Shown: positions 7,959 to 63,399 of the stretch, in pieces
How positions within the stretch are numbered: the stretch's first letter is position 1
Layout of the letters: each line of letters opens with the position of its first letter
Source: an uncultured Acidobacteriota bacterium
GTDB lineage: Bacteria > Acidobacteriota > UBA6911 > CAINFC01
Length of the DNA stretch: 64,000 bases
Reading direction: 5' to 3'
NCBI GenBank assembly: GCA_903847975.1
Contig: CAINFC010000322.1
Coordinates: 12,405-76,404 of the forward strand
Made by a program: the position numbers and the translations under genes
The notes under the pieces: generated by a model
The model's database searches: none
What the model was told of the DNA's origin: nothing
What the model saw: only the letters and a program-made list of their open reading frames with translations

Positions 7959-8891
7959 ATGAAACCGAATTCGGAAACAGACCACCCGACTCACGGGCCA
8001 TCGACCCTGCTCGGGCTACTGGCCATTCTGCTGTGGAGCAGCACCTTCGGCTTCGCCCGCAGCATCGCGGTTTCTTTCGGCGCTCTCCGATCGGGCGCCA
8101 TGGTTTTCCTGACTGCCGGACTGCTTTCGCTCCTCTGGGCCCTGCGAAAAAGCCGCCCGCCGTGTAAAGGGAGTCCCTTGGCCCTTGCTGCCCCGGGCAA
8201 ACCGCGCCGGCAGCTGGCGGCATGCGGACTTCTTTTTGTCGTCTACCTGGTATGCCTTTACCTGGCTATCGGCCTTGCGGCGAATGACAGCCAGGTTTTG
8301 CTCGTCGGGCTGATCAACTACCTCTGGCCGGCAGCCACTCTGGCTTTGGCCGTTCCCATTTTCGGACTCCGGATGCGCCGGTTTTTCCCCCTTGGCCTGC
8401 TGCTGGCACTGTTCGGCCTGGCACTGGCCACCGGCTCCCGGCCCCCCCCCGGCGACAGTCTCTCCCATCCGACGGCCTATTGGATCATGTTTCTGGGGAT
8501 GCTGTCGTGGTCCCTTTTTTCCGACCTCAACCGGGCCTGGAGTGCTTCCTGGCGCGGCAGCCCGGTTGGATTCTTTCTTACGGGAGGGGGATTGACCCTG
8601 GGGATCCTAAGCCTGCTGCTTCCGGAGCCGTTTACCTGGTCCTGGACTGCCGGAATCCAGTGCGCCTACATGGCCCTGGGCCCGGGCTGGCTGGCCTACA
8701 GCTTCTGGGACACCGGCACCCGGCGCGGCAATCTGCTGTTCCTGGCCAGTGCCAGCTACCTCACCCCGGTTCTTTCCTCTCTGGTGACTTCCTGGATGCT
8801 GCACCTCACACCCTCGGGCGCTTTCTGGGCGGGAACGATGCTCCTGGTTGCCGGCGCCGTCGTCTCCCGGCTCGGCCTCATCGACTCCTGA
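7959..8891 (+). CDS. EamA/DMT-family transporter (YddG-like exporter)
   Basis: About 10 TM helices; LLGLLAILLWSST, INYLWP and ASYLTPVLS motifs typical of YddG-like DMTs; ATG at 7959. Confidence 0.85.
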   Translation: MKPNSETDHPTHGPSTLLGLLAILLWSSTFGFARSIAVSFGALRSGAMVFLTAGLLSLLWALRKSRPPCKGSPLALAAPGKPRRQLAACGLLFVVYLVCLYLAIGLAANDSQVLLVGLINYLWPAATLALAVPIFGLRMRRFFPLGLLLALFGLALATGSRPPPGDSLSHPTAYWIMFLGMLSWSLFSDLNRAWSASWRGSPVGFFLTGGGLTLGILSLLLPEPFTWSWTAGIQCAYMALGPGWLAYSFWDTGTRRGNLLFLASASYLTPVLSSLVTSWMLHLTPSGAFWAGTMLLVAGAVVSRLGLIDS

Positions 8892-8982
8892 TGCGGCGTA
8901 GCGGCTGCCGGCTCTTTTGATTTCTCCCGGAACAATGGCATACAATCTACCGAACCCATATTTTCTTCCTTGCGAGCCGAAC

Positions 8983-9984
8983 ATGAAAAAAAGCTATTTT
9001 GTCCTTCTTCTTCTGACTCTGACCGTCTGGGGTGCCGTCGATTACCCGAAAACGGAAATCGGCAACGGCCTGATCCAGGCAAAACTGTATTTGCCGGACG
9101 CCCGGAACGGCTTCTACCGCTCCACGCGGTTCGACTGGGCCGGCACGATCTACGAACTGCAGTACAAAGGGCACACCTTTTTCGCACCCTGGGTCCGGCA
9201 GCATGATCCGGAGCTACGCGATGTGGAGTACCGCGCTGCTTTGAACGGATTTGCCGCCGGGACGAGAAGCGCCAACATCGGACCGGTCGAAGAGTTCAGC
9301 CTGCCTCTGGGCTATGACCAGGCCGCGGTCGGGGGCACTTTCATCAAAGTCGGAGTCGGAGCGCTGCGCAAGCCGGAGGAGCCCAAATACCAGTGGGCTA
9401 CCCCCTATGAGCTGGTCGATCCAGGCCAGTGGACGGCCCGCAGCGGTCCGGATTCCGTCGAGTTCACCCAGAAGCTGGCCGGCGGCGGCTTCGCCTACAC
9501 CTACCGCAAAACCGTGCGCCTTACCCCGGGCAAGCCGGAGCTGGTGCTGGAGCACAGCCTGCAGAATACCGGGCAGAAGCCCATCGACACCCTGGTTTAC
9601 AATCACAATTTTCTGACCATGGACGACCAGCCGACCGGCCCGGATTTTTCGATCCGGCTCCCCTTCGAAATTAAAGATGCCGTGGACAATCTGGGCGTGG
9701 TCCGGATCCGGGGCAAGGAAATCGGCTATAGCCGCGAGCTGGAAAAGGACGAGCGCTCCATGATCCAGGTCTCCGGCTTTGGGGCCACCGCGGCCGACTA
9801 CGACATCCGCGTGGAAAACCGCAGGACGGGAGCCGGCGTGCGGATCACCGCGGACCGGCCGCTGGCGCGCCTGGTGGTCTGGTCCGTCCGGCCGACGCGC
9901 TGCCCCGAGCCGTTCATCCGCGTGGCGGCCGATCCGGGGAAGGAGTTCACCTGGCGCATCACCTATGAATTTTACGCACGATAG
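8983..9984 (+). CDS. Secreted hypothetical protein with probable galactose-mutarotase-like beta-sandwich fold
   Basis: Signal peptide MKKSYFVLLLLTLTVWG; beta-rich sequence; YNHNF and C-terminal CPEPF..(PG)...W...Y pattern resembling aldose-1-epimerase-like proteins. Confidence 0.6.
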   Translation: MKKSYFVLLLLTLTVWGAVDYPKTEIGNGLIQAKLYLPDARNGFYRSTRFDWAGTIYELQYKGHTFFAPWVRQHDPELRDVEYRAALNGFAAGTRSANIGPVEEFSLPLGYDQAAVGGTFIKVGVGALRKPEEPKYQWATPYELVDPGQWTARSGPDSVEFTQKLAGGGFAYTYRKTVRLTPGKPELVLEHSLQNTGQKPIDTLVYNHNFLTMDDQPTGPDFSIRLPFEIKDAVDNLGVVRIRGKEIGYSRELEKDERSMIQVSGFGATAADYDIRVENRRTGAGVRITADRPLARLVVWSVRPTRCPEPFIRVAADPGKEFTWRITYEFYAR

Positions 9985-9985
9985 C

Positions 9986-11791
9986 ATGTCCTTCAGAAAA
10001 ACCCGCGTTCTTCTTTTCCTTAGCCTTGTTCTGACCGGGCACCGGATAGCCGCTCTTCCATTCGGGCCGCAGTCGAATATCCCTTCCCCCTGTGAAGGAC
10101 TCAAGAATCTCCCGTTACCCGATACCACCATTTTTTCCAGCCAGATTGTCCCCGCCGGCGGCTTTTCCGCACCGGCGGGCGCGGGGGGCATGCGGCAGGG
10201 ACCCGGTACTCCGTCAGCTTCCGATCTACCTTCCTTCTGCCGGGTCACCGGCCGAGTCTCGCCGGAGGTCGGTTTCGAAGTCTGGCTGCCGCCGGCTGCC
10301 GGCGACCGGCCATGGAACGGAAAATTCAACGGCGTCGGCAACGGAGGGCTGGCCGGTTTTATCAACTACGGCGCCATGATCCAGGCGCTGGGCCGCGGCT
10401 ATGCCACCGCCAGCACGGACACCGGCCACACCAGCAAACCGGGGAATGAGGCCTGGGCGCTGGGCCACCCCGAACGGCTGGTCGATTTCGCCTCCCGCGG
10501 CGTTCACGTGACCACCGTGGCCGCCAAAGCCCTGATCGAGGCCTATTACGGGCGGGAGCCGAAGTACTCCTATTTTACCGGCTGTTCCGGCGGAGGCGGA
10601 CAGTCTCTCAGCGAAGCACAGAGGTTCCCTGATGATTATATCGGGATTGTCGCCGGGGCTCCTGCCAATTTCCCGACGCGAATGTGGCCCGGAGAACTGT
10701 ACGCCGCATGGGTGACGCACCGCAGCCCCGCGCATCCGATCCCCAACGAAAAACTGCCGGCCATCACCCGGGCGGCGCTGGAAGCCTGCGACTCCATGGA
10801 TGGCGTCCGGGACGGTGTTCTGGATGACCCCCGCCTGTGCCGGTTTGATCCGGCCCGGATTCAGTGCCGGGACGTGGACGGCCCCGATTGCCTGACCGCC
10901 GCCCAGGTCGATTCGGTCCGAAAGATCTATGCCGGGCTGGCCCACCCGGCAACAGGCGAGCTTTTCTGGTACGGATACGAGATCAGCAGCGAGCCGGGCT
11001 GGCCCGGGCATATTCAGAATCCGTTCAACGTGCCCTTGAGCTATTTCAAGTACATGGTGCTGTCGGAGCCCGATTGGGACTGGAAGACCTTCGACTTTGC
11101 CGATCCGGCGAAGTTTGCAATTCTCCAGGATGCCTCCCGGAAGCTCGGGCCGGTTCTCGATTCCATCGATCCCGACCTCTCCTCCTTCCGTAAGAGGGGA
11201 GGCAAGCTCATCCAGTATCATGGCTGGATCGACCAGAACATCTCCCCGCGCAACAGCATCCGCTACTACGAGGATGTGAAAAAGGCCATGGGCGGGGAAA
11301 AGGCTACCTCGGATTTTTACCGGCTGTACCTGGCGCCGGGGATGGCGCACTGCGGTGGCGGACCCGGCCCCAACACCATAGACTGCCTGTCGGCGCTGGA
11401 GCTCTGGGTCGAGCAGGGGAAGGCTCCGGAGCGGATCATCGCCAGCCATGCGACGGCCGGCGCCACCGACCGCACCCGCCCGCTGTGCCCGTATCCGCAG
11501 GTGGCGCGGTACAAAGGGAGCGGCAGCACGGACGATGCCGGCTGTTTCGACTGCGTCGCCCCCCCGAGCCAATCCCCGCGCGAAGGGGCTTCCCGTCTTT
11601 TCCGGGCAACCCTTTCTCTTTCCGTCAGGAGCGTTCTTCCGGGGCAAAGTCCCATCGGGACAACAGAACAACAAAGCGCAAAAAGTCGCACAAGTTCTCA
11701 TGGAAGCCCTGGAGGGGCTTCGGAACACAGCCCGGGGTTGGCGCGCTTCGCGCCTACCCCGGGTAGAGATGTACGCAGACGACAACCCTGA
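9986..11791 (+). CDS. Tannase/feruloyl esterase family alpha/beta hydrolase
   Basis: Signal peptide; ASTDTGH, YFTGCSGGG (CS nucleophile motif), YHGWID.ISP, PGMAHCGGGPG, RTRPLCPYP; about 70 aa non-homologous C-terminal extension. Confidence 0.93.
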   Translation: MSFRKTRVLLFLSLVLTGHRIAALPFGPQSNIPSPCEGLKNLPLPDTTIFSSQIVPAGGFSAPAGAGGMRQGPGTPSASDLPSFCRVTGRVSPEVGFEVWLPPAAGDRPWNGKFNGVGNGGLAGFINYGAMIQALGRGYATASTDTGHTSKPGNEAWALGHPERLVDFASRGVHVTTVAAKALIEAYYGREPKYSYFTGCSGGGGQSLSEAQRFPDDYIGIVAGAPANFPTRMWPGELYAAWVTHRSPAHPIPNEKLPAITRAALEACDSMDGVRDGVLDDPRLCRFDPARIQCRDVDGPDCLTAAQVDSVRKIYAGLAHPATGELFWYGYEISSEPGWPGHIQNPFNVPLSYFKYMVLSEPDWDWKTFDFADPAKFAILQDASRKLGPVLDSIDPDLSSFRKRGGKLIQYHGWIDQNISPRNSIRYYEDVKKAMGGEKATSDFYRLYLAPGMAHCGGGPGPNTIDCLSALELWVEQGKAPERIIASHATAGATDRTRPLCPYPQVARYKGSGSTDDAGCFDCVAPPSQSPREGASRLFRATLSLSVRSVLPGQSPIGTTEQQSAKSRTSSHGSPGGASEHSPGLARFAPTPGRDVRRRQP

Positions 11792-11927
11792 AAGGGTTGC
11801 GCAAAATCCAACCATACCAGGTGTTTGCGCGGCCCTTTCAGGGCTGGGTTTCAAACAAATCCGCCCACCCGGGGTAGCGCCTTTGCGGTGCAACCCCGGG
11901 CTGTGTTCCGGAACCCCTTTGGGGTTT
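11704..11927. repeat. REPIN/MITE-like inverted-repeat element (family C-like)
   Basis: About 60 bp imperfect terminal inverted repeats with a perfect 20 bp core (CGGAACACAGCCCGGGGTTG 11721-11740 / CAACCCCGGGCTGTGTTCCG 11891-11910); inner palindromes CAACCCTGAAAGGGTTG and GCCCTTTCAGGGC. Confidence 0.8.
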
Positions 11928-11932
11928 TTTTT
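11912..11932 (+). terminator. Probable intrinsic terminator formed by the end of the repeat element
   Basis: AACCCC-TTT-GGGGTT hairpin followed by a T run, between convergent genes. Confidence 0.5.
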
Positions 11933-12045
11933 CGGGGGCATTAAAAAGCGGTAAGGCCAGGAAGGAAGCAGGAAGCAGTCCCGGGGGGAGGGGAGCGGTG
12001 GGGCCGCGGCGTACCGCCGCATAGCCCCGCCGCTTCGGGAACGGG

Positions 12046-13476
12046 CTAGGTGTAAATGTTGTCCATGGCGCGCTCCTCGTCCCACTGGGTGGTGGGCTCC
12101 CAGTAGCCGAACTTTTTGTCCAGGTGCGCCTTAATGGCCTCTTCGTTGAGGGTGATGCCGAGGCCCGGGCCGTCGGGAACGCGGATGAATCCCTTGTCGA
12201 CCAGGGGCTTCCCGGGACCGTCGACCAGCGTATCCCACCAGGGAATATCCACGGCATGGTTTTCCATGACGATGAAGCCTTCGCTGGCCGCCGCGCAGTG
12301 CACATTGGCCATGGCGCACACCGGCAGGCCGGCCATGTGGAACGTGGTCGGGATGCCGTAGGTCTGGGCCATGTCGACAATCCGCTTGGTTTCCAGGATT
12401 CCGCCGGAAGTGGACAGATCCGGGTTGATCACGTCGACGGCGTGCTCCTTGCAGAGCACCTCGAAGCCGGGCAGCAGATAGATGTCCTCGCCGGTGCAGG
12501 TCGCGACATCCAGCTCTTCGGTGATCTGCTTCAGCAGCTCGGTGTGAAACCAGGGCACCGGATCCTCCATCCAGGCCGGATTGGCCTTCTGGAAAGCCTT
12601 GCCCAGCCGGATGATCGAGTTGGTTCCGACGTTACCGAAATGATCGATGGAAAGGGGCGTATCCCAGCCGATGGCCTGGCGGATCTCCATCAGGTGATCG
12701 GCCAGCAGGGCAACCCCCTTATCGGTAATCTCGATGCCGGTCAGAGTGTGCTCCCGGCGGACACGGGGGCGATAGCCCCCCGGCTGGCCGGCGGCGGCCG
12801 CTGCTTCCTTCTCGGCGGCATCACTGTCGAATCCCAGAGGCTGCGACAGGGCTCCGGGAATTCCCGCCAGGCGGCGAACCCCGATGTCCAGCTTGAACCA
12901 GGTATAGCCCAGATCCTTGCGCCGCTTTATCTGTTCGGCAAAAATCTTGGGATCCGGCGATTCGGCCGTGTCGCAGTACAGGCGGATCTTATCCCGGTAC
13001 TTGCCGCCCAGCATCTGGTACACGGGAACGCCGTACACCTTGCCGGCCAGGTCCCAGCAGGCTTCCTCGATGGCCACCACGCCGCCGGCTGCCCGCCCCG
13101 TGCCGCCGAACTGGCGGAGCTTCCGGAATATTTTCTCGATATTGCAGGGATTTTCCCCCAGGATCCGGCTTTTCAGGACCAGCGCGTAGGTGCGGCTGGC
13201 TCCATCGCGGATTTCGCCATAGCCCGAAACGCCCTGGTTGGTGTCGATGCGGATGATATGCTTGCTCATGGATCCGCTCGCTCCGGTTATGCTGACCGTG
13301 CGCAGGTCGGTGATCTTCAGGGCCGAAGGGGACGAATTCCGGTTGGTGTTCTGCACCGCGGCATCCAGAGTGTTATCCGACCAGAAGCCGACTCCGGCGG
13401 CCGTGGCCGCACCCAAAGCGCCGGCGGACTTGAAAAAAGAGCGCCGGCCCAAAAATTTTTGCAACGATTTCTTCAT
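12046..13476 (-). CDS. Mandelate racemase/muconate lactonizing enzyme family dehydratase with Tat signal
   Basis: GRRSFFKSAGALG twin-arginine signal; AIEEACWDLAGKVYGVPVYQMLGG; metal ligands D(HFG), WMEDP, TGED; MENH. Confidence 0.9.
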   Translation of the reverse strand: MKKSLQKFLGRRSFFKSAGALGAATAAGVGFWSDNTLDAAVQNTNRNSSPSALKITDLRTVSITGASGSMSKHIIRIDTNQGVSGYGEIRDGASRTYALVLKSRILGENPCNIEKIFRKLRQFGGTGRAAGGVVAIEEACWDLAGKVYGVPVYQMLGGKYRDKIRLYCDTAESPDPKIFAEQIKRRKDLGYTWFKLDIGVRRLAGIPGALSQPLGFDSDAAEKEAAAAAGQPGGYRPRVRREHTLTGIEITDKGVALLADHLMEIRQAIGWDTPLSIDHFGNVGTNSIIRLGKAFQKANPAWMEDPVPWFHTELLKQITEELDVATCTGEDIYLLPGFEVLCKEHAVDVINPDLSTSGGILETKRIVDMAQTYGIPTTFHMAGLPVCAMANVHCAAASEGFIVMENHAVDIPWWDTLVDGPGKPLVDKGFIRVPDGPGLGITLNEEAIKAHLDKKFGYWEPTTQWDEERAMDNIYT

Positions 13477-29016: not shown

Positions 29017-32000
29017 ATGACGAACGAAAAACAGGCCGGCTGCCCGGGCGAACCTGCCTTTGAGAATACGAGCGCGCCCCGCATGCCGGAGGAGGAGATT
29101 TTCGACAGCCGCACCTGCCTGCCCGCTTTTATCGCCCAGGCACCCGTGGCCCTCGCCATGTTCGACACCCGGATGCGCTATCTGAGCTTCAGCCGTCAAT
29201 GGGCGGCCCAGTTCGGCCTCGGAAACAAGGATTTGAACGGCCTTTGCCATTACGAAGTCATGCCGGAAACCCCGGAAGGGTGGAAAGAGAACCACCGGCG
29301 CGCCCTCGAGGGAGAAGTCGTGAAGACGGAGGAGGAGCGCTTCCCCAAAGCCGACGGCTCCGTGCTGTGGCTTCACGGGGAGGTCCGTCCCTGGCACGAC
29401 CGCCAGGGGCGGATTGGCGGCATCATCGTTTTCAGCGAGGAAATCACCCGGCGAAAAGCGGCGGAAGAAACCCTGCAGGAAAAGGAAAAGTTTTTCCGCC
29501 TCATGGCGGAAAACATCAACGATATCTTCTGGATCGCCAGCCCGCGGATGAAGTCGCTGGTCTATGTCAACCCCAGCTTCGAGAGAGTCTGGGGCCGTCC
29601 CCGTCAGCTGATATACGATTCCCCTGGGGTGTTCATGGACTGGATCCATCCGGAGGACAGGGAACTGGTGAGGGAGGATCTGGCCAGGGGACTCAGCGGC
29701 ACGACGCCCTACACCCACGCGTACCGTTTTCTCCGCCCGGATGGTACGGTCCGCTGGCTTGAAGCCTGCATTTACCCCATTTTCGACGATACCGGGCAAG
29801 TCTATCTGTATACCGGTACCGGCCGGGACATCACCGACCAGAAAGCGCTTTCCCTGGAACTGGAAGCCTACCGGAAAAACCTGGAGAAACTGGTCCGGCA
29901 GAGGACCGCCTCCCTGGAAGCAAGTGAAGCCAAGCTGCGGGCCATTGTGGATGCCATGCCGGACGTGGCCTTCCTGCTGGATGCCGGCGGCCGCTACCTG
30001 GAAGTTCTGACCTCCTCCCGCGAACTTCTCTATGTTCCGGAAGCCGAGCTGATTGGCCGCAGGGTTGCCGACCTGCTTCCGGAAGCGCAGGCGACACTAT
30101 TAGTCCAGACGATCGAAAAGACGCTGGCCACCCGGGATATCCAGACAGTGGAGTATTTCCTCCCCCTGGCCAAGGGAAAGTGCTGGTTCGAAGGGCGCTG
30201 CGTTCCGATCCTGTCCTCCTGGAGCGAGCAGGATGCCGGACTCGTTTTTTTTGTCGCCAGGGATATCACCTATCGAAAAAGGATTGAAGAGCTGGAGACC
30301 ATCCGGTTGAAATTCGTAGAGGCGGCGGTCAACCTGGCCGTCTCGGAAGAGGCATTGTCGCATTTTCTGGGAAGCACCTGTCTGACCCTGGGCTGGGATC
30401 TTGGCGAAATCTGGAGCTACAGCGCCCATAACGGGACTTTCCGGGTTCTTTGCATCTGGCAGCAGATCGGAACCCGGGCCAACGATTTTATGGAGGTGAC
30501 CGGACGCCAGAAATTCACACCGGGCGTCGGCCTGCCGGGAATTCTCGTTCAGTCGCGGGAGCCCATCTGGGTGGAAGACGTGACCGCGGATCCGAGGTTT
30601 ATACGCCAGTCGGCGGCCAGGAAGGCCGGGCTGCACACCGCCCTGGCCGTGCCCATCATCCTGGACCAGGAGGTGACCGGTGCCCTGATTCTCTACTGCT
30701 GCCGGATCATGGAAAGAGAAGAGGACCTGGTCCGGACCCTTTCCGAGCTGTGCAAGCAGATCGGGCAGCTGCTGGAGAAGAACCGGGCGGTGGAACAGCT
30801 GAAGGCTTCCAAGATTCAGTCCGAGTCCGCCAGCCGGGCCAAGTCCTCCTTTCTGGCCAATATGTCGCACGAGATCCGCACCCCCATGAATGCCATCCTC
30901 GGTTTTACCCAGGTCCTGCTGCGGGATGCCGTCTTCACGCCGAGGCAGCTTCAGCTTCTTCGGATTATCGAGCAGTCCGGCACGCACTTGATGAACCTGA
31001 TCAACAATATCCTGGACCTTTCCAAGATTGAAAGCGGCAAAATCGTTCTGGACCAGCGCGAGTTCAGCCTGCGGGGCCTCCTGGAGAGCATCGATGTCCT
31101 TTTCCGGGCGCAGGCCCAGGGAAAAGGACTGGACCTGCACACCCGGATCGACCCGGACCTCCCCCCGTTTGTCCTGGGGGACGAAGGCAAACTCCGCCAG
31201 ATTCTGAACAACCTGCTGAGCAACGCCATCAAGTTCACCGCCCAGGGGCGGGTGAGCCTGCAGGTAAATTCCGACCTTCTGCTGCAGCTGGATCCGGCGG
31301 AAGAAGGAAAAGTCCGCCTGAACTTCTGTGTCGAAGACTCGGGGCCCGGAATCAGCCAGGGGGACCTGGAAAGAATATTCCATCCCTTCGAACAGTCCCA
31401 GGCAGGCTTCGACTATGGCGGAAGCGGGCTGGGGCTCACCATCGCCCGGGAATTTGTACAGCTCATGGGCGGCGATCTGGCCGTGTCCAGCTCGCTTGGG
31501 CAGGGGAGCCGCTTCGACTTTCACGTGCTGGTCCGGAAGAGCGATCATTCGGAAAAAGAAAGGATTTCCGGCGGCCGGCAGATCCTGCGGCTTCGGGCCG
31601 GAACGGAGCCTTTGTCGGTCCTGGTGGCCGACGACAGTGCCGACAACAGACTGTATATCCGGGAGCTGCTGGTGGGGATCGGAATCAGCGTCTTCGAGGC
31701 AGAGAACGGCATGGAGGCCCTGGATGCCGTCGAGCAGCTGTCGTTTCACGCGGTGCTGCTGGATATCCGCATGCCCGTCATGGACGGGTATGAAGTCATC
31801 GCCCGGATAAGGGCTTCGGACCGGGGGAAAAACCTGCCGATCATCGCCGTCACCGCCAGCGCCTTCCGTGAAGAAGAGGAGAAGGCTGTCCGGACCGGCG
31901 CCAACGCCTATCTGCGCAAGCCGTTCCGGCCGGTTGAGCTCTACGATATCCTCGGCCAACAGCTCGGCCTGACCTATGAATATGCCGCCGAATCCCGGCT

Positions 32001-32229
32001 TGCCGACAGTGCCCAAAGCGATAACCGCCCTGCGGTTCCCATACCCGAAGATCTGCGGGAGAAGATAGCGGCTACGGTGGAGGAGGGGGATATCGTTCGT
32101 TTGAAGGAACTGATCGCGCTGGTGGGCGGCTATGATCGCACCGCGGAAATAAATCTTCAGTCTCTGGCCGACCAGTTCGATTACCATTCCATTCTGAAAT
32201 GGATCACGAAAAACAGGCAGGTATCATGA
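29017..32229 (+). CDS. Hybrid sensor histidine kinase (PAS x3, GAF, HisKA, HATPase, REC)
   Basis: [49 protein letters not shown]; PAS and GAF motifs upstream. Confidence 0.96.
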   Translation: MTNEKQAGCPGEPAFENTSAPRMPEEEIFDSRTCLPAFIAQAPVALAMFDTRMRYLSFSRQWAAQFGLGNKDLNGLCHYEVMPETPEGWKENHRRALEGEVVKTEEERFPKADGSVLWLHGEVRPWHDRQGRIGGIIVFSEEITRRKAAEETLQEKEKFFRLMAENINDIFWIASPRMKSLVYVNPSFERVWGRPRQLIYDSPGVFMDWIHPEDRELVREDLARGLSGTTPYTHAYRFLRPDGTVRWLEACIYPIFDDTGQVYLYTGTGRDITDQKALSLELEAYRKNLEKLVRQRTASLEASEAKLRAIVDAMPDVAFLLDAGGRYLEVLTSSRELLYVPEAELIGRRVADLLPEAQATLLVQTIEKTLATRDIQTVEYFLPLAKGKCWFEGRCVPILSSWSEQDAGLVFFVARDITYRKRIEELETIRLKFVEAAVNLAVSEEALSHFLGSTCLTLGWDLGEIWSYSAHNGTFRVLCIWQQIGTRANDFMEVTGRQKFTPGVGLPGILVQSREPIWVEDVTADPRFIRQSAARKAGLHTALAVPIILDQEVTGALILYCCRIMEREEDLVRTLSELCKQIGQLLEKNRAVEQLKASKIQSESASRAKSSFLANMSHEIRTPMNAILGFTQVLLRDAVFTPRQLQLLRIIEQSGTHLMNLINNILDLSKIESGKIVLDQREFSLRGLLESIDVLFRAQAQGKGLDLHTRIDPDLPPFVLGDEGKLRQILNNLLSNAIKFTAQGRVSLQVNSDLLLQLDPAEEGKVRLNFCVEDSGPGISQGDLERIFHPFEQSQAGFDYGGSGLGLTIAREFVQLMGGDLAVSSSLGQGSRFDFHVLVRKSDHSEKERISGGRQILRLRAGTEPLSVLVADDSADNRLYIRELLVGIGISVFEAENGMEALDAVEQLSFHAVLLDIRMPVMDGYEVIARIRASDRGKNLPIIAVTASAFREEEEKAVRTGANAYLRKPFRPVELYDILGQQLGLTYEYAAESRLADSAQSDNRPAVPIPEDLREKIAATVEEGDIVRLKELIALVGGYDRTAEINLQSLADQFDYHSILKWITKNRQVS

Positions 32230-33416
32230 GCGAAACAGACTACAAGGGATCCCTGATGATTGTGGATGATGTCCCGGAAAACCTGAGAATCCTCCAGGAA
32301 ATGCTCTCTTCCAGTGGATACAGAATCCTGATGTTCCCCAGCGGAAAAATGGCCTTGAACGCCATAGCGAGGCACAAGCCGGACCTTCTCCTGCTGGATA
32401 TCATGATGCCGGAAATGGACGGCTTTGCGATGCTGCGCTCTCTGCGTGAAATGGAAGGGTGCGGCGATCTTCCGGTCATTTTCATCAGCGCCCTGGGCGA
32501 AACACACAGCAAGGTGCGGGCTTTCCGGATGGGGGGAGTGGATTACATAACCAAGCCGTTTCAGCATGAGGAGGTGCTGGCCCGCGTGGAGACCCACCTG
32601 AGCCTGCGCCGGATGCGCGCGGAGCTGCAGGAGCACAACCATCGGCTGGAGGAGCTGGTCCGCGAGAAGGTGCAGGAGCTGGAAGTTGCCTATGACCGGC
32701 TTCGCGCCATCGATCGGGCCAAGAACGATTACCTGTCGGCCATCTCCCATGAAATCCGGACTCCGGTCAACGGGCTTTTAGGCATTGCCGACCTCGCTCT
32801 TTCGGAGCTCCCGGACGAAGAGCTGAAGGAGTCCCTGCTGCCCTGCTATGAAACCACGAGGGAACGGATCATGGACGCCATTGACGGATCCATGAAACTC
32901 CTGGAGCTGCAGGAAAAAGGCCTGATCGTCGAAACCACGCCCATCGACCTTCCTCCCCTGGTGGAAAAGGCGCGCTCCTCGCTCGCCGGGTTTTATTCGG
33001 AGAAGCGGCTTTCGCTTGCGGTGGCCGGCCCCGGACCCGCCCGCGTTCTGGGAAATCGCGACCTGATCCTGCAAAGCGTCCTCACCCTGCTTCGCGCCAG
33101 CGGACTGATGGCCCACCCCGGTTCGACTATCGACATGCGCTACCGTTCGGAAGGGGAGAGGGTCGCCATGGAAATGGACTTTCCCGCCCTGGCCCTCTCC
33201 GAAGGGCTGCAGCGGACTTTTTTTGATGTTTTCTCCCCGGAGCGGACCTCCTCGCTCGTCGAGAGCCTGGGCTTCTCCGTCCCCCTGTCGGCGGCTCTGC
33301 TGCAGGCCATGGGGTGCGGAATACGGATCGGGAATACCGGAACGGGGATCGTCATCGGCGTCTCCTTTCCCCGGGCGGAGCCCGGAAGCCGGGAAACGGA
33401 GCCGGGGAGCGTATGA
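32226..33416 (+). CDS. REC + HisKA protein with a degenerate HATPase domain
   Basis: ATGA overlap with the kinase gene; REC intact; SHEIRTPVN intact; N, G1 and G2 boxes not recognisable. Confidence 0.88.
   Translation: MSETDYKGSLMIVDDVPENLRILQEMLSSSGYRILMFPSGKMALNAIARHKPDLLLLDIMMPEMDGFAMLRSLREMEGCGDLPVIFISALGETHSKVRAFRMGGVDYITKPFQHEEVLARVETHLSLRRMRAELQEHNHRLEELVREKVQELEVAYDRLRAIDRAKNDYLSAISHEIRTPVNGLLGIADLALSELPDEELKESLLPCYETTRERIMDAIDGSMKLLELQEKGLIVETTPIDLPPLVEKARSSLAGFYSEKRLSLAVAGPGPARVLGNRDLILQSVLTLLRASGLMAHPGSTIDMRYRSEGERVAMEMDFPALALSEGLQRTFFDVFSPERTSSLVESLGFSVPLSAALLQAMGCGIRIGNTGTGIVIGVSFPRAEPGSRETEPGSV

Positions 33417-49237: not shown

Positions 49238-49241
<4 letters not shown>
47358..49241 (-). 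CDS. Secreted hypothetical protein, probable TIM-barrel glycoside hydrolase-like domain plus C-terminal domains
   Basis: Probable TTG start overlapping the upstream stop (TTGA) with AGGAG RBS; signal-like [15 protein letters not shown]; IDDF, IKYPQWY, VGTETR, WFDH barrel-like motifs. Confidence 0.6.
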
Positions 49242-53041
<3,800 letters not shown>

Positions 53042-53062
53042 AAGCGCTCGTTTTTATCTCCA

Positions 53063-54997
53063 TCATTTCCCCAGAGCACGCTCGATGTCCAGCAGCATGG
53101 TAACTCCGGCCGAAAGCTTGGCGATTCCCAGGATATAATCGGTGTTGACCGAGGAGCCGAAATCCGGGGTGTCCTCCACCTGCTCGCCGGTGACATCACA
53201 GACTTCCAGCACCGCATCGACAATTACCCCGATCTGGATCGAGCCGCTGAGGCCGGCGATTTCCGTAACGATGATGCAGGTCCGGTCGTCATATGCGGTG
53301 GGCGGAAGTCCGAATTTCAGGCGCAGGTCGACAATGGGAATCACCTTGTTCCGGAGGTTGATGATTCCCTTCATGTAGGCGGGCATCTTGGCCAGCGGGG
53401 TAATGGTCATCATCTGGATGATCTCGCGCACATCCATGATGGAAACCCCATACCTCTCCGTTGCCAGGCGGAATACCAGGTATTTTCCCTCCCGGCTTGC
53501 CAGCACACTGGCCAAACCTTCGGAGGGCTTGGCGGCGGCCGTTGTGATCGTGCCCTCGGATTCTTTCGTGGTACGGACTTCCGGGGCGGTAGGCAGCATT
53601 TCGCGGACGTCCATCCCTTTTTTCCGGAATGCGGCATCGGCAAACCGCAGGTCGACAAATTTCTCCAGGTCGATGATGGCCCCGATATCCATTTTGGCGG
53701 TCATGTATCGCTGGATCCGGTCCAGATCTTCCAAAGTCGGATACAGGTTTCCGGTGCGGATGCCCTTCGGGTCGGTCAGCACCTGGTGGATCAGGTTGGA
53801 GGTCAGCCCGAGCTTTTTCTGCGGATCGAGGAAGGAAACCGCGATTTCCGAGGAAGGCAGCGGGTTGTCCATGATAAACCGGCCGGCGTCGATGAGCTGT
53901 TCCGTAAATTCATGAACCGTATCGGTATTCCGGTCAATGAATTCCTTGCGGAATACGAACACGCAGCAGGGGTGGTTATCCCAGATCTCGCTGCTGAGGA
54001 TCTGCCGTTCGGCAATGCCGGAAGCCACGGCCCGAATCCCGATCGGTTCAGCCACCATGAATCCGCAGATATTGGCGTTTTCAGCCATGAATTCCGGCAT
54101 ATGAATGGGGGCCACGACGTCGAAGAGGACATTGACCGCTTCCTTGCCGGAAACGCCCGGGCGAAGGCCCATTTCCGTGAAGTACTTATGGGCCAGCATG
54201 TTGTGAATCGACATTTTGTAGGGGATCAGGAAGGCCTTGTGCTTGAAGAACTGCGGGTAAGGCTTGCGGTATTCGGTGGACCGTGTGCGGACCATGGTGC
54301 TACCGTTGCGGTGGGTAAAAAGAGTCAGCCGGATGGGCACACCATAGTTGAAGAGGTCCATGGCGGCAGGAGCCAGAATGCAGGCGGCATCGACATCCTT
54401 TTTTTCCAGAGCGTCCTGGACCATGTTCCAGTTGGGCAGGCACTGGGTTTCCAGGCTGTAGGTGTGCGATCGGACCTGGCCGGTCTCCAGGTGGTGTTTC
54501 AGGACGCCCAGGGCCAGATGGTCCGTGATCTGGATATGGGCCACCCGGAGGATCGGGCGACCGTCTGCGGTGGTGGTTGCCAGCGCTTTGGCGGGCTGAG
54601 CGGGCTCGGTCCGGATTCCCAGTATTTCGTCGATTCGGCGCTTGAGCTCGTCGGGCAGGAAAGGCTTGGCAACCACCGCGGAGGCCCCGGCGTCCATGGC
54701 CTCCTTGATGTGCTGCTTGTCGCCCTGTCCGGTGGCCATCAGGAAAGGCATCTGCCGATAGTCAGGGTTCTTTCGGAGCCACTGCAGCAGCTCCATCCCA
54801 TCCTTGCGTGGCATGGCCCAGTCGCTGATAACCAGGCGGATATCCTCGTGCGCGGCCAGCTTTTCCAGGGCATCTTCCCCATCCTGGGCCTCCACGACGA
54901 CCGGGTATCCGATCTGGGCCAGAATTTTGATTTCCATGCGGCGCATGGTCGGTGCGTCTTCGACCAGGAGAATTTTGACGGTGGGAGATGGATTCAT
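53063..54997 (-). CDS. Fusion protein: CheY-like REC + NrtA/CmpA/NasS-type solute-binding domain + CheW
   Basis: ATG 54997; KILLVED...ISDWAMP...ATG...AKPF; ITDH, NW, ILAP, HRNGS, SIHN, VAEP, HPCC; YLVFRLATERYG...KGIINLRNKVIPIVDLR...GVIVDAV. Confidence 0.9.
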   Translation of the reverse strand: MNPSPTVKILLVEDAPTMRRMEIKILAQIGYPVVVEAQDGEDALEKLAAHEDIRLVISDWAMPRKDGMELLQWLRKNPDYRQMPFLMATGQGDKQHIKEAMDAGASAVVAKPFLPDELKRRIDEILGIRTEPAQPAKALATTTADGRPILRVAHIQITDHLALGVLKHHLETGQVRSHTYSLETQCLPNWNMVQDALEKKDVDAACILAPAAMDLFNYGVPIRLTLFTHRNGSTMVRTRSTEYRKPYPQFFKHKAFLIPYKMSIHNMLAHKYFTEMGLRPGVSGKEAVNVLFDVVAPIHMPEFMAENANICGFMVAEPIGIRAVASGIAERQILSSEIWDNHPCCVFVFRKEFIDRNTDTVHEFTEQLIDAGRFIMDNPLPSSEIAVSFLDPQKKLGLTSNLIHQVLTDPKGIRTGNLYPTLEDLDRIQRYMTAKMDIGAIIDLEKFVDLRFADAAFRKKGMDVREMLPTAPEVRTTKESEGTITTAAAKPSEGLASVLASREGKYLVFRLATERYGVSIMDVREIIQMMTITPLAKMPAYMKGIINLRNKVIPIVDLRLKFGLPPTAYDDRTCIIVTEIAGLSGSIQIGVIVDAVLEVCDVTGEQVEDTPDFGSSVNTDYILGIAKLSAGVTMLLDIERALGK

Positions 54998-55100
54998 ATT
55001 CCGCGCTCTGCTTCCTGAAAAAAGAAATTGTATGGTTAAATAAAAAAGACGTTCCCAGAAAAAGGTCTGCGATATATAAGTATACAATCTTTGAGCGCAT

Positions 55101-55832
55101 ATGCCAGACCATCGTCAACATCGCGGAGTCCACCCGGAGGACCGCTCCCTTTGGAGTCCGAACCGGCTGCCGTTTTTACAGTCGGCGGTGCAGGATATGT
55201 CGTGGCTTTTAGGCCATGGGTATGCTTCCAAGTCCGTCCTGAAGCTGGTGGGGGATCGTTACAACCTCCATGCCCGGCAGAGGGAAGCGGTTTCCCGCTG
55301 CTCCTGCTCGGAGCAGCGGCGTCAGGCCAGAGGGAGCAGGCAGCTGAGCAGCGAGGCGGTCCGCGGCAGACCGCTGCTGCTGGATGCCTTTAACGTGATT
55401 ACGACCGTGGAAGTGGCTTTGTCGGGAGGCGTGCTCCTGGCCGGCAGGGACGGCTGCCTGCGGGATGTGGCCGGGGTCCACGGCACCTACCGGGAGGTGG
55501 AGGAGACGGTACCGGCGATTTTGCTTCTGGGCGGCTTTTTACAGGAATTGCAGCCATCGGGGTGCTGCTGGCTGCTGGACCAGCCGGTTTCCAACAGCGG
55601 CAAGCTGCGCGGAATCGTGCTGCATCTAAGCCGGCAGCAGGGGTGGGGACACACTGCCGAGCTTTCCCCCGATCCCGACAAGGTCCTGATTCGCGGATCC
55701 GAAGTGGTGGTCAGCTCGGACAGCGCCGTGCTGGACGCCTGCGGCCCCTGGTTCAATCTGGTCCGGGCGGTGGTGAAGGCCCATGTGCCGGATGCCTGGA
55801 TTATTCCTCTCGGCTCCTGCGGCGCGGGGTAG
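55101..55832 (+). CDS. DUF434 domain protein
   Basis: LL.HGY.....LKLVGDRYNL..RQR; LLDAFNVITTVE; DGCLRD; LDQPVSNSGKL; SSDSAVLD. Confidence 0.88.
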   Translation: MPDHRQHRGVHPEDRSLWSPNRLPFLQSAVQDMSWLLGHGYASKSVLKLVGDRYNLHARQREAVSRCSCSEQRRQARGSRQLSSEAVRGRPLLLDAFNVITTVEVALSGGVLLAGRDGCLRDVAGVHGTYREVEETVPAILLLGGFLQELQPSGCCWLLDQPVSNSGKLRGIVLHLSRQQGWGHTAELSPDPDKVLIRGSEVVVSSDSAVLDACGPWFNLVRAVVKAHVPDAWIIPLGSCGAG

Positions 55833-60057: not shown

Positions 60058-62007
60058 TTATTCCGATTCCTTCTCAAAAGAGAGTGCCTTCGACAGGCGT
60101 CCCAGCCCGCGGAATCCGTAAAGCAGGCAGAAACCGGCGAGCAGGCCCAGGGCGACCCAGATGCTGCCTTTCATCCAGGGGCGGTATACGAAAGAATCGC
60201 TCAGCTTGTCGATGTAGGTCCGGTCGAAAGATTTCTGAAACCAGCTCATCTCCCGGACCTGCTGCCGTTCGGCGGCTATGGGCGAGTCGACGGTCACCTG
60301 GCCGTAGAAGAAATTCTCATTTTTGGAGTGGCAGTCTTCGCAGTGGTTGACGCCCAAAGCCTGAGTGGCGGGGCGCACATCGTGGGCCATCGGCCAGTAG
60401 TAAGGCTTGGCCGCCTCGCTCTCCTCCTCCACCAGCCCGTTTTTCATGCCGTTCAGGGCATGCAGCTTGCCGCCGCTGACATAAACGGGGCGCCCGGCGC
60501 CCGGTTCGCTTTTGCCCAGGGCCTCCAGTAGCGAGGCCATCTGGGCAGCCGTCCAATCCGGCCAGCTGCCGTCGGCCGGGATTTTCCACTGTTCCATCAG
60601 CTTGCCGGCCTTCAGGCGGACGGTATCGGGCGGCAGAGGGCTGACTTTCCCGCCGGCTTCATATCCCCAGAAGGAAGGCCAGATCGCCTTATAGGTGCCG
60701 ATTCTGCCGTTTTCGTCTTCGGCCAGCAGGGGGTACTGGATGTGCGGAAGGGCCATCGGGGCCTTGTTGACATTGCGCATACCCAGGAAATGGGTCTGGC
60801 TGGTCTTCTGGTATCGCACCTGGCGATCCGGCCAGGGACCGGAGTGGCATGCCGTGCAGTGCAGCTTGGTAAAATGAATCGAAGGAAACCCCTTGTGGGT
60901 TGGCCGCGGAGCGGCCATGCGTCCGGCGGTCGGAGCCGCAGAGGCCCCGGTTGCCCCTTCGCCAAGATGGCATCCCTTGCAGGTCAGGGCGGCTGCGGCG
61001 GGATCGCCGCCCCGGGCTGATTCGCCTTCATATCCCCGGACGATGCGATGGTCAAGGCTGTTGCGATGGCAGTCCACGCAGGTGAACCCGCGGCTCATGT
61101 GGATATCTTCATCGGCCTTCCAGCGATCCACGCCGAGCTGTGCGGTGTCGGCGTTGGAGTGGCAGAAATAGCAGCGCTTGGCCGGTACGGTTCGAACCAG
61201 GTCAAAGGCCACTTTGCTGCCGGCCCAGAAGCGGCTTTCGGCGTAGGCGGTCTTGGGCTGCTTGTCCCGGAGGCCGTCTTCCACATTGCCCAGCAGATAA
61301 TCGTAAGTGGAAGGCATGGCGGAGGCGCTGCCGGTGACGGCGGCGAGACCGCTGGAGGCGGCCGGAGCCCAGCGGAAATTCTCCCGAAGAATCTGGATGG
61401 CATATTCCGCATGGTCGTAAGCCGGGCTGTCGTCATGGCAGGTCAGGCAGTTGACTTCCACTTCGCCGGACAGCTCCCAGCGCGCAGCCGGATCTTCTTT
61501 CCGGGGGTCGGCATCGGCGCTGATACCTCCGGCCGTCCTTCCGGCGAAAAGGCGCGCAAACTGCCAGCGCGAGATGCCTGCCTCCTGGGGATGAAAGGTG
61601 CCCGGCCAGTGGCGATAAGACAGGGGAATCTGGGTGCCCGTCTGGGCATCGGCGAGAATCCACGGCTGCCCTTTGCGGCCCGGCGGAATGCCATTCTCCG
61701 TGGAGTTGAAATGCCAGCCGTTCCGGATCATGTCGTAGTCGTGACACTCGCCGCAGGTCGTCCGCGTGCTGAAGGGCAACGGCGGTTTGACATCGGGCAG
61801 CACCACGTCGCCCTCGGCAATGCGTAGTGGAATCAGGTGCGCCGGGTGAGCCCGGCTTCCGTCGCTGAAGTCGCCCAGCTTCGGCTTCTTGGGTTCGGGA
61901 GGATTAGCGGGAGGCGGATCGGCTCCCTGAACTCCCCATGCGGCGGCGAAAAAAAGCAGGGTGCTGATCCTGAGGATCCTGCGGTAAGCCTCTCTGTTCT
62001 GCTTCAT
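60058..62007 (-). CDS. Membrane-anchored multiheme cytochrome c, seven CxxCH motifs
   Basis: CGECH, CLTCH, CYFCH, CVDCH, CKGCH, CTACH, CEDCH; N-terminal signal and C-terminal TM helix. Confidence 0.93.
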   Translation of the reverse strand: MKQNREAYRRILRISTLLFFAAAWGVQGADPPPANPPEPKKPKLGDFSDGSRAHPAHLIPLRIAEGDVVLPDVKPPLPFSTRTTCGECHDYDMIRNGWHFNSTENGIPPGRKGQPWILADAQTGTQIPLSYRHWPGTFHPQEAGISRWQFARLFAGRTAGGISADADPRKEDPAARWELSGEVEVNCLTCHDDSPAYDHAEYAIQILRENFRWAPAASSGLAAVTGSASAMPSTYDYLLGNVEDGLRDKQPKTAYAESRFWAGSKVAFDLVRTVPAKRCYFCHSNADTAQLGVDRWKADEDIHMSRGFTCVDCHRNSLDHRIVRGYEGESARGGDPAAAALTCKGCHLGEGATGASAAPTAGRMAAPRPTHKGFPSIHFTKLHCTACHSGPWPDRQVRYQKTSQTHFLGMRNVNKAPMALPHIQYPLLAEDENGRIGTYKAIWPSFWGYEAGGKVSPLPPDTVRLKAGKLMEQWKIPADGSWPDWTAAQMASLLEALGKSEPGAGRPVYVSGGKLHALNGMKNGLVEEESEAAKPYYWPMAHDVRPATQALGVNHCEDCHSKNENFFYGQVTVDSPIAAERQQVREMSWFQKSFDRTYIDKLSDSFVYRPWMKGSIWVALGLLAGFCLLYGFRGLGRLSKALSFEKESE

Positions 62008-62040: not shown

Positions 62041-63399
62041 CTAAACCTCGAACTCGCCGGGCGAGAACTCCAGCTTTATGGCTTTGTCCACTGCCTCGTT
62101 CACTTTCAGGACGGCAACGGCGGTTTCGAATCCGATTTCACCCGGGCAGTTCAGCTTCGCTTTTCCGCGGATGGAATCGAAGAAATTTTCCAGGTGAGGC
62201 TGGTGGTACTTCTTTTTCATGGGGACTGGAATGCTGTAACTCGGCGGGGGAGCGGTTTCCCGAACGTCCAGGGTGACGGCAGGCGCGCCTGCCGCCGGCT
62301 TCGGCTCCTCCTTGGGAGCCAGAATATAGCCCCGCTTCACCCACTGAGCCCAGTCCGGAGCGTTGCCCACATCCCGGTACAGGGCGCCCTTGCCGGCCGA
62401 CTCGCTGATTTCCAGGGTACCTTCGTCTCCCATGAACACTTCAAAGTAGCCGCCGAAGCCGTTGGTGGTCAAAGTCTGGTAGAAGGCACGGACGGTACCG
62501 CGCCTGGTCTGGTATTCGTACACCGTCAGGACGGTATCGTACCATTCGTGGGTGGCTTTGCTGTAATAGTCCGTTCCGCCGCTGGCAATCACCGAGCGGG
62601 GAGGAGTGCCCAGGAACCAGGTGAATATGTCGATCTGATGGGATCCAAGGTCGACGATCGCTCCTCCACCCAGGCCTTTGTACCAGCGCCAGTTGAGAAA
62701 CTGTTCCATGGAGCGGAAGCCGTACTTTTCAAGAGTGGCCTGAGGAATGTGGTACTTCTCGGGCATGGTCAGGAAATCTTTTTTGGCCCGATTCCACTGC
62801 CCGGCGATATTGGTGATGTTGCCGAGGAGCCGGGCCTCCTGGATCAGCTTCTGGTAGGCATGGATGTAACGCGGGTTGCTCCGGCGCTGGTGGCCGATCT
62901 GCAGAAATTTTCCGGTTTCGCGGGAGGTGCGCACCATCTTCCGGGCGTCCTCGAGATTGGTGGACATTTCTTTTTCGCAGTACACGTGCAATCCGGCCTT
63001 CATGCACTCGATGGCGTGTTCGGCGTGCCAGAAATCGGGCGTGGCGACGATCACCGCATCCAGGCGATCCTTCTCCGCGGCCAGCATCGCTTTGTAGTCG
63101 TTGTAGGGCCGGTTTTCGTGCTTGAATTTGGCCAGGCTGCGGGTCATCCGTTTGAGGTTGTACTCCTCCCAGATATCGCAGACAGCAACAAAGCGCACAT
63201 TGGGAATTTGCAGAGCGGCATCCACCAGGACCTGTCCCTGGGCGCCCGCTCCGATCAGGCCGACCTGAATTTCGTTGGTGATCCTGCTCCGGGCCGCCGC
63301 GGGACGAGAGGAAGAGATTAATAGCCCGGCGCCCAGACTGCCGGCCGTTGCCATGAAACCGCGCCTATCCATTGGGTTGATAGAGTTGTTTTCTGTCAT
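62041..63399 (-). CDS. Gfo/Idh/MocA family oxidoreductase with Tat signal
   Basis: DRRGFMATAG Tat motif; GLIGAGAQG, ATPDFWH, YCEKEM, QIGHQRRS, DLGSHQID. Confidence 0.94.
   Translation of the reverse strand: MTENNSINPMDRRGFMATAGSLGAGLLISSSRPAAARSRITNEIQVGLIGAGAQGQVLVDAALQIPNVRFVAVCDIWEEYNLKRMTRSLAKFKHENRPYNDYKAMLAAEKDRLDAVIVATPDFWHAEHAIECMKAGLHVYCEKEMSTNLEDARKMVRTSRETGKFLQIGHQRRSNPRYIHAYQKLIQEARLLGNITNIAGQWNRAKKDFLTMPEKYHIPQATLEKYGFRSMEQFLNWRWYKGLGGGAIVDLGSHQIDIFTWFLGTPPRSVIASGGTDYYSKATHEWYDTVLTVYEYQTRRGTVRAFYQTLTTNGFGGYFEVFMGDEGTLEISESAGKGALYRDVGNAPDWAQWVKRGYILAPKEEPKPAAGAPAVTLDVRETAPPPSYSIPVPMKKKYHQPHLENFFDSIRGKAKLNCPGEIGFETAVAVLKVNEAVDKAIKLEFSPGEFEV

Follow-up and report, generated by a model that had tools for sequence, protein, structure and literature searches.

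What does a cytoplasmic protein sense, and to what does it report, when a phosphorylatable receiver (REC), a binding-protein fold familiar from solute importers and a CheW domain are joined in a single polypeptide? The question is raised by a gene on the minus strand, at 53063..54997, of a 64,000-nucleotide stretch of DNA from an uncultured Acidobacteriota bacterium (GenBank assembly GCA_903847975.1, contig CAINFC010000322.1; the whole analysed stretch is called the window). We found that the conserved functional unit of the 644-aa product is a cassette made of the receiver and the binding domain, and that CheW is one of several outputs to which this cassette is attached. Our favoured reading, to which we assign a probability of about 0.45, is that the protein works as a two-input, CheV-like auxiliary adaptor that would respond both to phosphorylation and to a cytoplasmic solute.

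The mechanical open reading frame covers 53063..55087 (-) and opens with TTG; its first ATG lies at 54997 and its TGA stop at 53063-53065. Because the alignment of 74 homologues starts at this ATG and runs full length from it, we take 53063-54997 (-) as the true gene. The ATG is preceded by A/T-rich sequence and, 10-20 nt upstream, by the purine-rich AGGAAGCAGAG; the G+C content of the gene is 0.584 (0.619 for the window). Pfam finds three strong, non-overlapping domains (Response_reg, NMT1_2 and CheW), and the full-length AlphaFold2 model built from the 74 homologues (predicted local distance difference test score, pLDDT, 84.4; predicted template modeling score, pTM, 0.71) consists of a receiver at aa 8-125, a two-lobed binding-protein fold at aa 148-460, a segment with pLDDT <50 at aa 468-499 and a CheW fold at aa 504-642. 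A hydropathy scan found neither a signal peptide nor a transmembrane segment: it flags no more than two marginal windows, which begin at aa 574-575 with a 19-residue mean of 1.74-1.83 and fall within a CheW strand, and the receiver itself forms the N-terminus. The protein is intact, cytoplasmic and composed of three domains. An earlier note, drawn from the letters of the sequence, had given the same gene coordinates and three-domain architecture, with an intact receiver (ED, the D in ISDWAMP, T and K), no signal peptide, a complete CheW and a downstream kinase, and on all of these points our results, here and below, bear it out.

The receiver (aa 8-125; 54623..54976 (-)) matches PF00072 over aa 9-122 with an E value of 1.7e-25 (89.8 bits; cut-off 30.2). 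Among solved structures it most resembles CheY proteins (6TG7: template modeling (TM) score 0.89, 41% identity). The active site is complete, with E13-D14, D59 (in 'ISDWAMP'; codon 54821-54823), T89 and K111, each invariant or at least 90% conserved among the 74 homologues. Judged by these residues, an acidic pair, a phospho-acceptor Asp, a Thr/Ser and a Lys, the domain qualifies as a regular member of PF00072.

A linker at aa 126-147 (54557..54622 (-)) joins the receiver to the binding domain, and among the 74 orthologues, all bearing CheW, its sequence is poorly conserved although its length is fixed at 21-24 residues. As a proxy for the packing of the two domains, we compared the pTM of the full-length model with that of a cassette-only model. 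Residues 1-465 alone, modeled from a diverse alignment that mixes outputs, gave a pLDDT of 92.6 and a pTM of 0.90; a pTM of 0.90 for two domains means that their mutual placement is confidently predicted. The full-length pTM of 0.71 is close to the value expected for a well-placed cassette (465 of 644 residues) combined with an unplaced CheW, and AlphaFold2 indeed gives CheW no confident position on the cassette. Because the linker length is fixed and the cassette-only pTM reaches 0.90, the cassette would act as one unit; the models predict that receiver and binding domain form a single structural body to which CheW is a tethered add-on.

The distribution of the binding domain across proteins shows how the cassette is used. 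An exhaustive HMMER search that used aa 140-465 as the query and covered 1.84 billion cluster representatives returned 605 matches at E<=1e-3. In nearly all full-length representatives that are more than about 40% identical, the domain starts at about residue 137-149, directly behind a receiver; in the remaining ones it still follows a receiver, deeper in longer proteins. Cassette proteins have total lengths of 459 to 1416 aa, and we classified their outputs by Pfam scans and a local phmmer classification. The cassette is found alone (for example, the 458-aa protein of locus L008, labelled Desulfosudis oleivorans), in tandem (P0004), in front of CheW (the present protein and its orthologues), in front of a CheA core composed of H-kinase_dim, HATPase_c and CheW, equivalent to P3-P4-P5 (P0131, P0132 and P0141 at loci L029, L028 and L027), in front of SpoIIE/PP2C (at least eight representatives), in front of an RsbW-like HATPase_c_2 plus STAS, and in front of NIR_SIR (P0136, with NIR_SIR_ferr and NIR_SIR, a nitrite/sulfite-reductase 4Fe-4S/ferredoxin-like partner that is unusual for a receiver); in P0138, a HisKA-HATPase kinase core precedes it. 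The three CheA-core fusions have no detectable Hpt/P1 domain, and P0141 carries an extra C-terminal receiver. In the wider His/Cys clade to which the binding domain belongs, further fusions are to the signalling domain of methyl-accepting chemotaxis proteins (MCP; P0248), to permeases of ATP-binding cassette (ABC) transporters (P0202, P0215), to GAF and to V4R.

The binding domain (aa 148-460; 53618..54556 (-)) has the class-F binding-protein fold and matches NMT1_2 over aa 150-376 (Pfam E 6.4e-25). Its best solved relative by sequence is 3UN6, an ABC binding protein of S. aureus (HMMER E 3.6e-14, compared to 3e-4 for NrtA and 0.03 for CmpA), which is also its best fold match in Foldseek (TM 0.90, root-mean-square deviation 2.6 Å). 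Fourteen residues are invariant in the 74 orthologues (H154, D159, H160, C186, W190, H229, H253, H265, E317, W339, H342, C344, C345 and R350). A subset of conserved positions is shared more widely, from receiver-fused proteins to free proteins of 300-340 aa with or without export signals: D159-H160, W190, H229-R230, S233, S263, H265 (sometimes Gln), E317-P318, W339, H342, position 344 (Cys or Asp) and C345. The cleft motif itself comprises D159-H160, W190, H229, S263, H265, E317, W339, H342 and C344-C345 (Cys-Cys codons at 53963-53968 (-)), and within it H229, H265, H342, C344 and C345 are conserved across fusions, free binding proteins and exported ones. Common to 3UN6 and the present domain are H229, H265, E317 and C344-C345, and the only cysteines in the aligned part of 3UN6 (residues 30-254) are the pair that matches C344-C345. 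Sequence, predicted fold and shared cleft residues together place the domain in a 3UN6-type His/Cys clade of NMT1_2.

The entry title of 3UN6 includes 'with zinc bound'. In a paper on clade-B CO dehydrogenases, a 3UN6-like binding protein modeled with AlphaFold 3 coordinates a metal through two Cys and one or two His. Its authors regard the ligand of the clade as unidentified and report that the associated enzyme turned over neither bicarbonate nor nitrate. Going by the conserved motif, the cleft most likely holds a metal-thiolate/imidazole site in the place where NrtA holds nitrate; the metal could be the signal in its own right or could help to bind another molecule.

Genes that encode the binding domain separately from the receiver connect it with chemosensory and partner-switching genes and with a transporter. 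The closest free cytoplasmic homologue (P0160; 41% identity) has the motif intact, and its operon encodes a histidine kinase, a REC-PP2C protein, RsbW-STAS, an Hpt protein, a single-domain REC, DUF169, the binding-domain protein and a PAS-MCP. As separate genes, it holds most of the cassette's fusion partners (receiver, PP2C and RsbW-STAS) plus an MCP of the kind fused in the wider clade. On two separate contigs, at loci L030 (4647-6487) and L031 (35-1560), a DUF169 gene stands directly upstream of a free cytoplasmic His/Cys binding-domain gene, and a membrane PAS-MCP gene follows in both. At locus L032, an operon at 8001-13240 encodes a free cytoplasmic binding-domain protein, an ABC ATPase, an exported binding protein, a permease and, closing the operon, a stand-alone cassette of 457 aa that is 47% identical to aa 1-456 here. 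The three L032 paralogues all retain H229, H265, H342 and C344-C345; they are a 312-aa protein that lacks a leader, one of 399 aa whose leader is of the twin-arginine type (RRQFLGSAAAALGA), and the 457-aa receiver-fused cassette. This layout, a periplasmic uptake protein accompanied by cytoplasmic paralogues as in NrtA with NrtC/CmpC and NasS, is the main reason why we consider that the cassette would report the cytoplasmic pool of an importer's substrate.

The same residues could instead form a sensor of redox state, thiols or sulfide, in which C344-C345, with or without a metal, switches on oxidation or on meeting sulfide or a soft metal, so that the cleft is reused as a reactive site and the conformation of the cassette shifts. 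Vicinal cysteine pairs serve as metal-binding or redox elements in other proteins, and here an invariant Cys-Cys and three His line the cleft, the hosts are mostly anaerobic Desulfobacterota and one cassette is fused to the NIR_SIR sulfite/nitrite-reductase-like domain. We nevertheless regard such a sensor as unlikely. Exported binding proteins of ABC importers carry the motif as well, and so do permease-fused domains, which indicates a transported solute, and position 344 is often Asp in the wider His/Cys clade, a substitution that suits a metal ligand better than a disulfide.

The C-terminal domain (aa 504-642; 53072..53488 (-)) is a canonical CheW. It matches PF01584 at aa 505-642 over nearly the full profile (positions 1-134 of 138; E 7.4e-35; 120 bits, cut-off 23.5), can be aligned with residues 18-151 of E. 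coli CheW (2HO9) with no large gap and superimposes on chain E of 8C5V with a TM score of 0.88 at 36% identity. CheW function depends on residues such as I33, V36, E38 and R62 of E. coli CheW, and the present domain keeps equivalents of all four, among them E525 for E38 and R549, the 'NLR' arginine, for R62. In total, 378 residues separate the receiver from CheW. The last of these form a disordered tether (aa 461-503; 53489..53617 (-)), with pLDDT <50 over aa 468-499, 17% mean identity and a length of 22-53 aa in orthologues; in P0123 and P0134 the corresponding linker is about 100 residues long. Since the tether is disordered and variable in length, direct allosteric gating of CheW is not indicated, and the 'ligand-gated' adaptor proposed in the earlier note is not supported in that sense.

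The likely source of phosphoryl groups is encoded next door. After a 21-nt spacer that contains GGAG (53042..53062 (-)), and that is likely an operon junction between the gene's stop and the next ATG, comes a 1267-aa membrane hybrid histidine kinase (49238..53041 (-)). By hydropathy scan and inspection of the sequence by eye, its N-terminal part has about six hydrophobic stretches in aa 9-222, then a loop of about 160 aa and one more hydrophobic stretch at about aa 421-447; C-terminal to this membrane part, Pfam finds PAS, HisKA, HATPase_c, two REC domains and Hpt. Co-transcription of the two genes is likely from their arrangement. The trio made up of this gene pair and a divergent DUF434/DUF5616 gene is kept at loci L001 and L035/L036, which represent the two closest lineages; there the farther flanks differ and the REC-binding-domain-CheW protein is 71% and 72% identical, respectively. 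Because the trio with the kinase is conserved, a phosphorelay ending on D59 is a reasonable expectation for the window's own clade. Between the lineages (the window versus L001 and L035), the membrane/sensor part of the kinase is 34% identical and its core 49-58%, compared to 71-72% for the adjacent protein; these alignments suggest that the external sensor of the kinase diverges much faster than its cytoplasmic partner. The DUF434 + DUF5616 gene, at 55101-55832 (+), is transcribed away from the REC-binding-domain-CheW gene, and a functional link between the two is possible.

Under the favoured reading, these parts would operate as follows. The receiver packs, according to the models, against the binding domain, and this cassette would be the conserved core. 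The His/Cys-Cys site of the cleft would hold a metal ion, as in 3UN6, and the cleft would bind a small solute through or beside that metal. The domain would report the cytoplasmic level of this solute, which is probably a substrate of 3UN6-type NitT/TauT ABC importers, in the way that NasS and the C-terminal domain of CmpC report cytoplasmic nitrate. Closure on the ligand and phosphorylation of D59, most likely by the Hpt domain of the co-transcribed hybrid kinase, would jointly set the state of the cassette. CheW, on its flexible tether of about 40 aa, would bring the cassette to a complex of the CheA/chemoreceptor type, where the protein could work in the manner of CheV, providing additional coupling and accepting phosphate, with an action that depends on an intracellular chemical cue. 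The analysis itself bears out the domains with their conservation, the cleft motif, the cassette with its other outputs, the tether and the pairing with the kinase gene; metal binding, ligand, phosphotransfer, array docking and direction of regulation are all steps that we infer.

Several observations weigh against this account. A tblastn search with the CheA core and the MCP signalling domain, which is a sequence search and not a full annotation, found neither in the 64-kb window at E<1e-3, in agreement with the earlier note, which had seen no CheA or chemoreceptor gene there. On five long contigs from Syntrophia and Desulfobacteria, including L002/L003, no gene recurs beside the orthologue beyond local synteny; the orthologue is an orphan there, so that gene context suggests a partner only in the window's own clade. 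MCP genes occur within 10 kb of an orthologue at two loci only, and are never adjacent. The contigs that carry cassette-CheA-core fusions (3-9 kb) show no che cluster, and the neighbours on them are other two-component proteins. The sequencing runs that hold the sequence are DNA metagenomes only, mainly of lake water. In addition, metal binding is read from the motif and a homologue, and the long tether, predicted to be disordered, is also compatible with a regulated sequestration of CheW, with control in either direction.

Some of these observations suit a role for CheW outside chemoreceptor arrays. CheW could pair with the P5 domain of the cassette-CheA-core paralogues, or with that of another kinase, in a receptor-free complex. 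Alternatively, the cassette could retain CheW until phosphorylation or ligand sets it free, in which case the neighbouring kinase would have this protein as its terminal response regulator. Cassette-CheA-core proteins without Hpt/P1 do exist (P0131, P0132 and P0141), no che genes are adjacent to orthologues at the loci examined, and the operon with an Hpt-ending hybrid kinase is conserved; moreover, the regulatory domain of CmpC is a precedent for ligand-released intramolecular locking by the same fold. However, the domain is an ordinary CheW by type (36% identity to the E. coli protein, with the I33, V36, E38 and R62 equivalents in place), and AlphaFold2 does not dock it confidently on the cassette. 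We judge a role outside arrays improbable, at about the same level as a redox sensor, and retain the two-input adaptor as the better account.

A sensor of nitrate/nitrite or bicarbonate, in which the middle domain, like NasS, would be a direct receptor for a trigonal oxyanion, is far less credible. At the level of fold, the description of the domain in the earlier note as NrtA/CmpA-like stands: Foldseek gives TM scores of 0.68-0.70 to NrtA (2G29; 0.68 when normalized to the target) and to the CmpC regulatory domain (9UAI), and 0.65-0.66, again normalized to the target, to CmpA (2I48/2I49), so that the model passes as a class-F fold of the NrtA/CmpA/NasS group. The domain is also cytoplasmic, like NasS, and retains equivalents of W102, H196 and the 'W..HP' segment. 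The clade and the pocket are where that description fails. We located the nitrate ligands by counting along the CmpC and NrtA sequences in the HMMER alignments, in which H408, G452 and K481 of the CmpC regulatory domain correspond to H196, G240 and K269 of NrtA and to H265, A316 and C345 here; G240 is presumably the nitrate-pocket residue of NrtA that matches Gly452 of CmpC. The position of the nitrate-specificity lysine is thus occupied by the invariant C345, and the preceding C344 is likewise invariant in the 74 orthologues.

In published work, the regulatory domain of CmpC binds nitrate with His408, Gly452 and Lys481, and K269 and H196 are named as nitrate-pocket residues of NrtA. The lysine of NrtA and CmpC offsets the charge of nitrate and fixes specificity, CmpA has Glu at the same position, for bicarbonate, and NasS is reported to retain all nitrate-coordinating residues. 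By alignment, the present domain has neither Lys nor Glu there, and it does not keep the ligands that NasS keeps. NrtA is also the more distant relative (E 3e-4 versus 3.6e-14 for 3UN6), and with the binding domain alone as query every NCBIfam family stays below its cut-off (SsuA_fam, 34 bits against 163.5; SaoX, 16 against 300). Because the specificity lysine is replaced by cysteine, we reject the nitrate/bicarbonate reading, and with it the nitrate-bicarbonate type of binding protein named in the earlier note; an NrtA/CmpA/NasS-type identity of the middle domain was ruled out by the same Lys to Cys change at C345.

That the gene is a chance or artefactual fusion, or is decaying, has a negligible probability: the reading frame is intact, the identical protein occurs on 9 contigs (the three places examined represent three different metagenome samples), 119 of the best 120 related clusters share the architecture, and, depending on the domain, 32-46% of the alignment columns reach at least 90% conservation. 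The possibility, raised in the earlier note, of an assembly artefact absent from other genomes is excluded by the 9 contigs and the clusters, at least 119, that keep all three domains.

The relatives behind these counts come from a search of 5.8 billion protein clusters, which gave 964 relatives at E<=1e-10; the 119 are full-length proteins, about 54-72% identical, in which Pfam detects the same three domains. Their source names include Syntrophus, Smithellaceae, Desulfobacterium and Desulfobacteraceae, examples being WP_093882085.1 (Syntrophus gentianae) and CBX31125.1 (Desulfobacterium sp. N47), and in databases they are annotated as 'chemotaxis protein CheW' or 'response regulator receiver modulated CheW protein'. 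Conservation is highest in the binding domain, with 46% of its columns at least 90% conserved, compared to 41% for REC and 32% for CheW; this pattern suggests that all three domains are constrained and that the gene is under purifying selection. The window is syntenic with a metagenome-assembled genome labelled Acidobacteriota (L001), and its gene content, including CarboxypepD_reg outer-membrane barrels and MacB/FtsX permeases, fits that label. Beyond the two closest homologues (P0002, and P0003 of L001), the named relatives are Desulfobacterota; with this distribution and a G+C content of the gene below that of the window, horizontal acquisition is possible. On two Syntrophia-like contigs, a 147-aa C_GCAxxG_C_C gene lies convergent and directly downstream of the orthologue (L023, 11956-12399; L034, 11993-12436), which may be plain synteny.

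Comparison with known systems shows which features are shared and which are not. Like CheV, the protein unites a CheW-like domain and a phosphorylatable receiver of the CheY type in a single chain, and it would be expected to serve at a CheA complex as auxiliary adaptor or phosphate acceptor. CheV has its CheW-like domain at the N-terminus and its receiver at the C-terminus; here the order is reversed, a 313-aa binding domain and a disordered tether lie in between, and the receiver is paired with the binding domain rather than with CheW. Judged by its architecture, the protein is not a CheV. A survey of CheW-domain architectures analysed CheW-REC (CheV.I) as its only CheV architecture and left out architectures with fewer than 40 sequences. 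E. coli CheW (2HO9; 8C5V chain E) is matched over its full length by our C-terminal domain, but it is a single domain of about 160 aa, which here forms the C-terminal quarter of 644 aa. 3UN6 and the binding proteins of clade-B CO dehydrogenase operons, which offer the best sequence and fold match and share the cleft residues with the Cys-Cys pair, are exported lipoproteins of ABC importers, whereas the present domain is cytoplasmic, stands behind a receiver and belongs to a signalling protein.

The sensors of cytoplasmic nitrate offer the closest parallels in logic. In the NasS-NasT pair, a cytoplasmic sensor with the NrtA fold works with a receiver protein and ligand alters their association; here both partners are fused. 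NasS keeps the nitrate ligands, whereas the key Lys is Cys here, and the output of NasT is an ANTAR RNA-binding domain rather than CheW; the present receiver has a complete, CheY-like phospho-acceptor site. In the C-terminal domains of CmpC and NrtC (9UAI, 9U9Z, 8WM7), a cytoplasmic copy of the transporter's binding fold senses solute and docks or releases a partner on a flexible tether; the L032 operon, too, pairs an exported protein with cytoplasmic paralogues in this way. Those domains are fused C-terminally to an ABC nucleotide-binding domain and bind nitrate via Lys481; the present protein contains no ABC_tran and instead has REC and CheW as fusion partners and Cys in the pocket. Finally, the che1 locus of Shewanella oneidensis with CrsR/CrsA combines Che components with PP2C, anti-sigma and STAS functions in one pathway, a combination that has its counterpart in the variety of cassette outputs and in the L030 operon, but it has no sensor with a binding-protein fold, so that its relevance to the present gene is indirect.

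The gene family is already present in databases under generic names. Our literature searches on combinations of CheW, NMT1/NMT1_2 and receiver turned up no account of the architecture, and in the literature searched we likewise met neither the cassette nor its Cys-for-Lys pocket, nor its variety of outputs.

Two further features of the window concern signalling and electron transfer. A second two-component pair lies at 29017-33416 (+), composed of a 1070-aa PAS-PAS-GAF-HisKA-HATPase_c-REC hybrid kinase (29017-32229 (+)) and a 405-aa REC-HisKA protein (32199-33416 (+)), whose genes overlap by 31 nt. A 649-aa multihaem cytochrome with Cytochrome_C7 and MtrC-like matches (60058-62007 (-)) adjoins a GFO_IDH_MocA oxidoreductase (62041-63399 (-)).

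A broader proposal, which we hold tentatively and consider doubtful as a whole, is that the cassette is an undescribed general signalling module. It would combine phosphorylation with a metal-assisted small-molecule input and feed the result both into chemosensory scaffolds (CheW, CheA core, MCP) and into partner-switching modules (PP2C, RsbW-STAS), the CheW and CheA-core fusions conveying a cytoplasmic cue to Che-type kinase complexes without a chemoreceptor. The cue would be whatever the 3UN6-type ABC importers transport; these importers have a link to clade-B CO dehydrogenases as well.

If the favoured reading is correct, the protein would define a new class of CheW-domain proteins that carry their own ligand sensor, and it would bear on how chemosensory complexes are informed of the metabolic state of the cytoplasm, as well as on CheV-like adaptors, whose role is poorly understood. 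It would mean that anaerobic Desulfobacterota and an Acidobacteriota-like lineage reuse one modular receiver-sensor cassette with at least five outputs. The family would also provide soluble, cytoplasmic and easily expressed members of the 3UN6-type clade, and the ligand of the cassette, once identified, could answer the corresponding question for the binding proteins of clade-B CO dehydrogenases.

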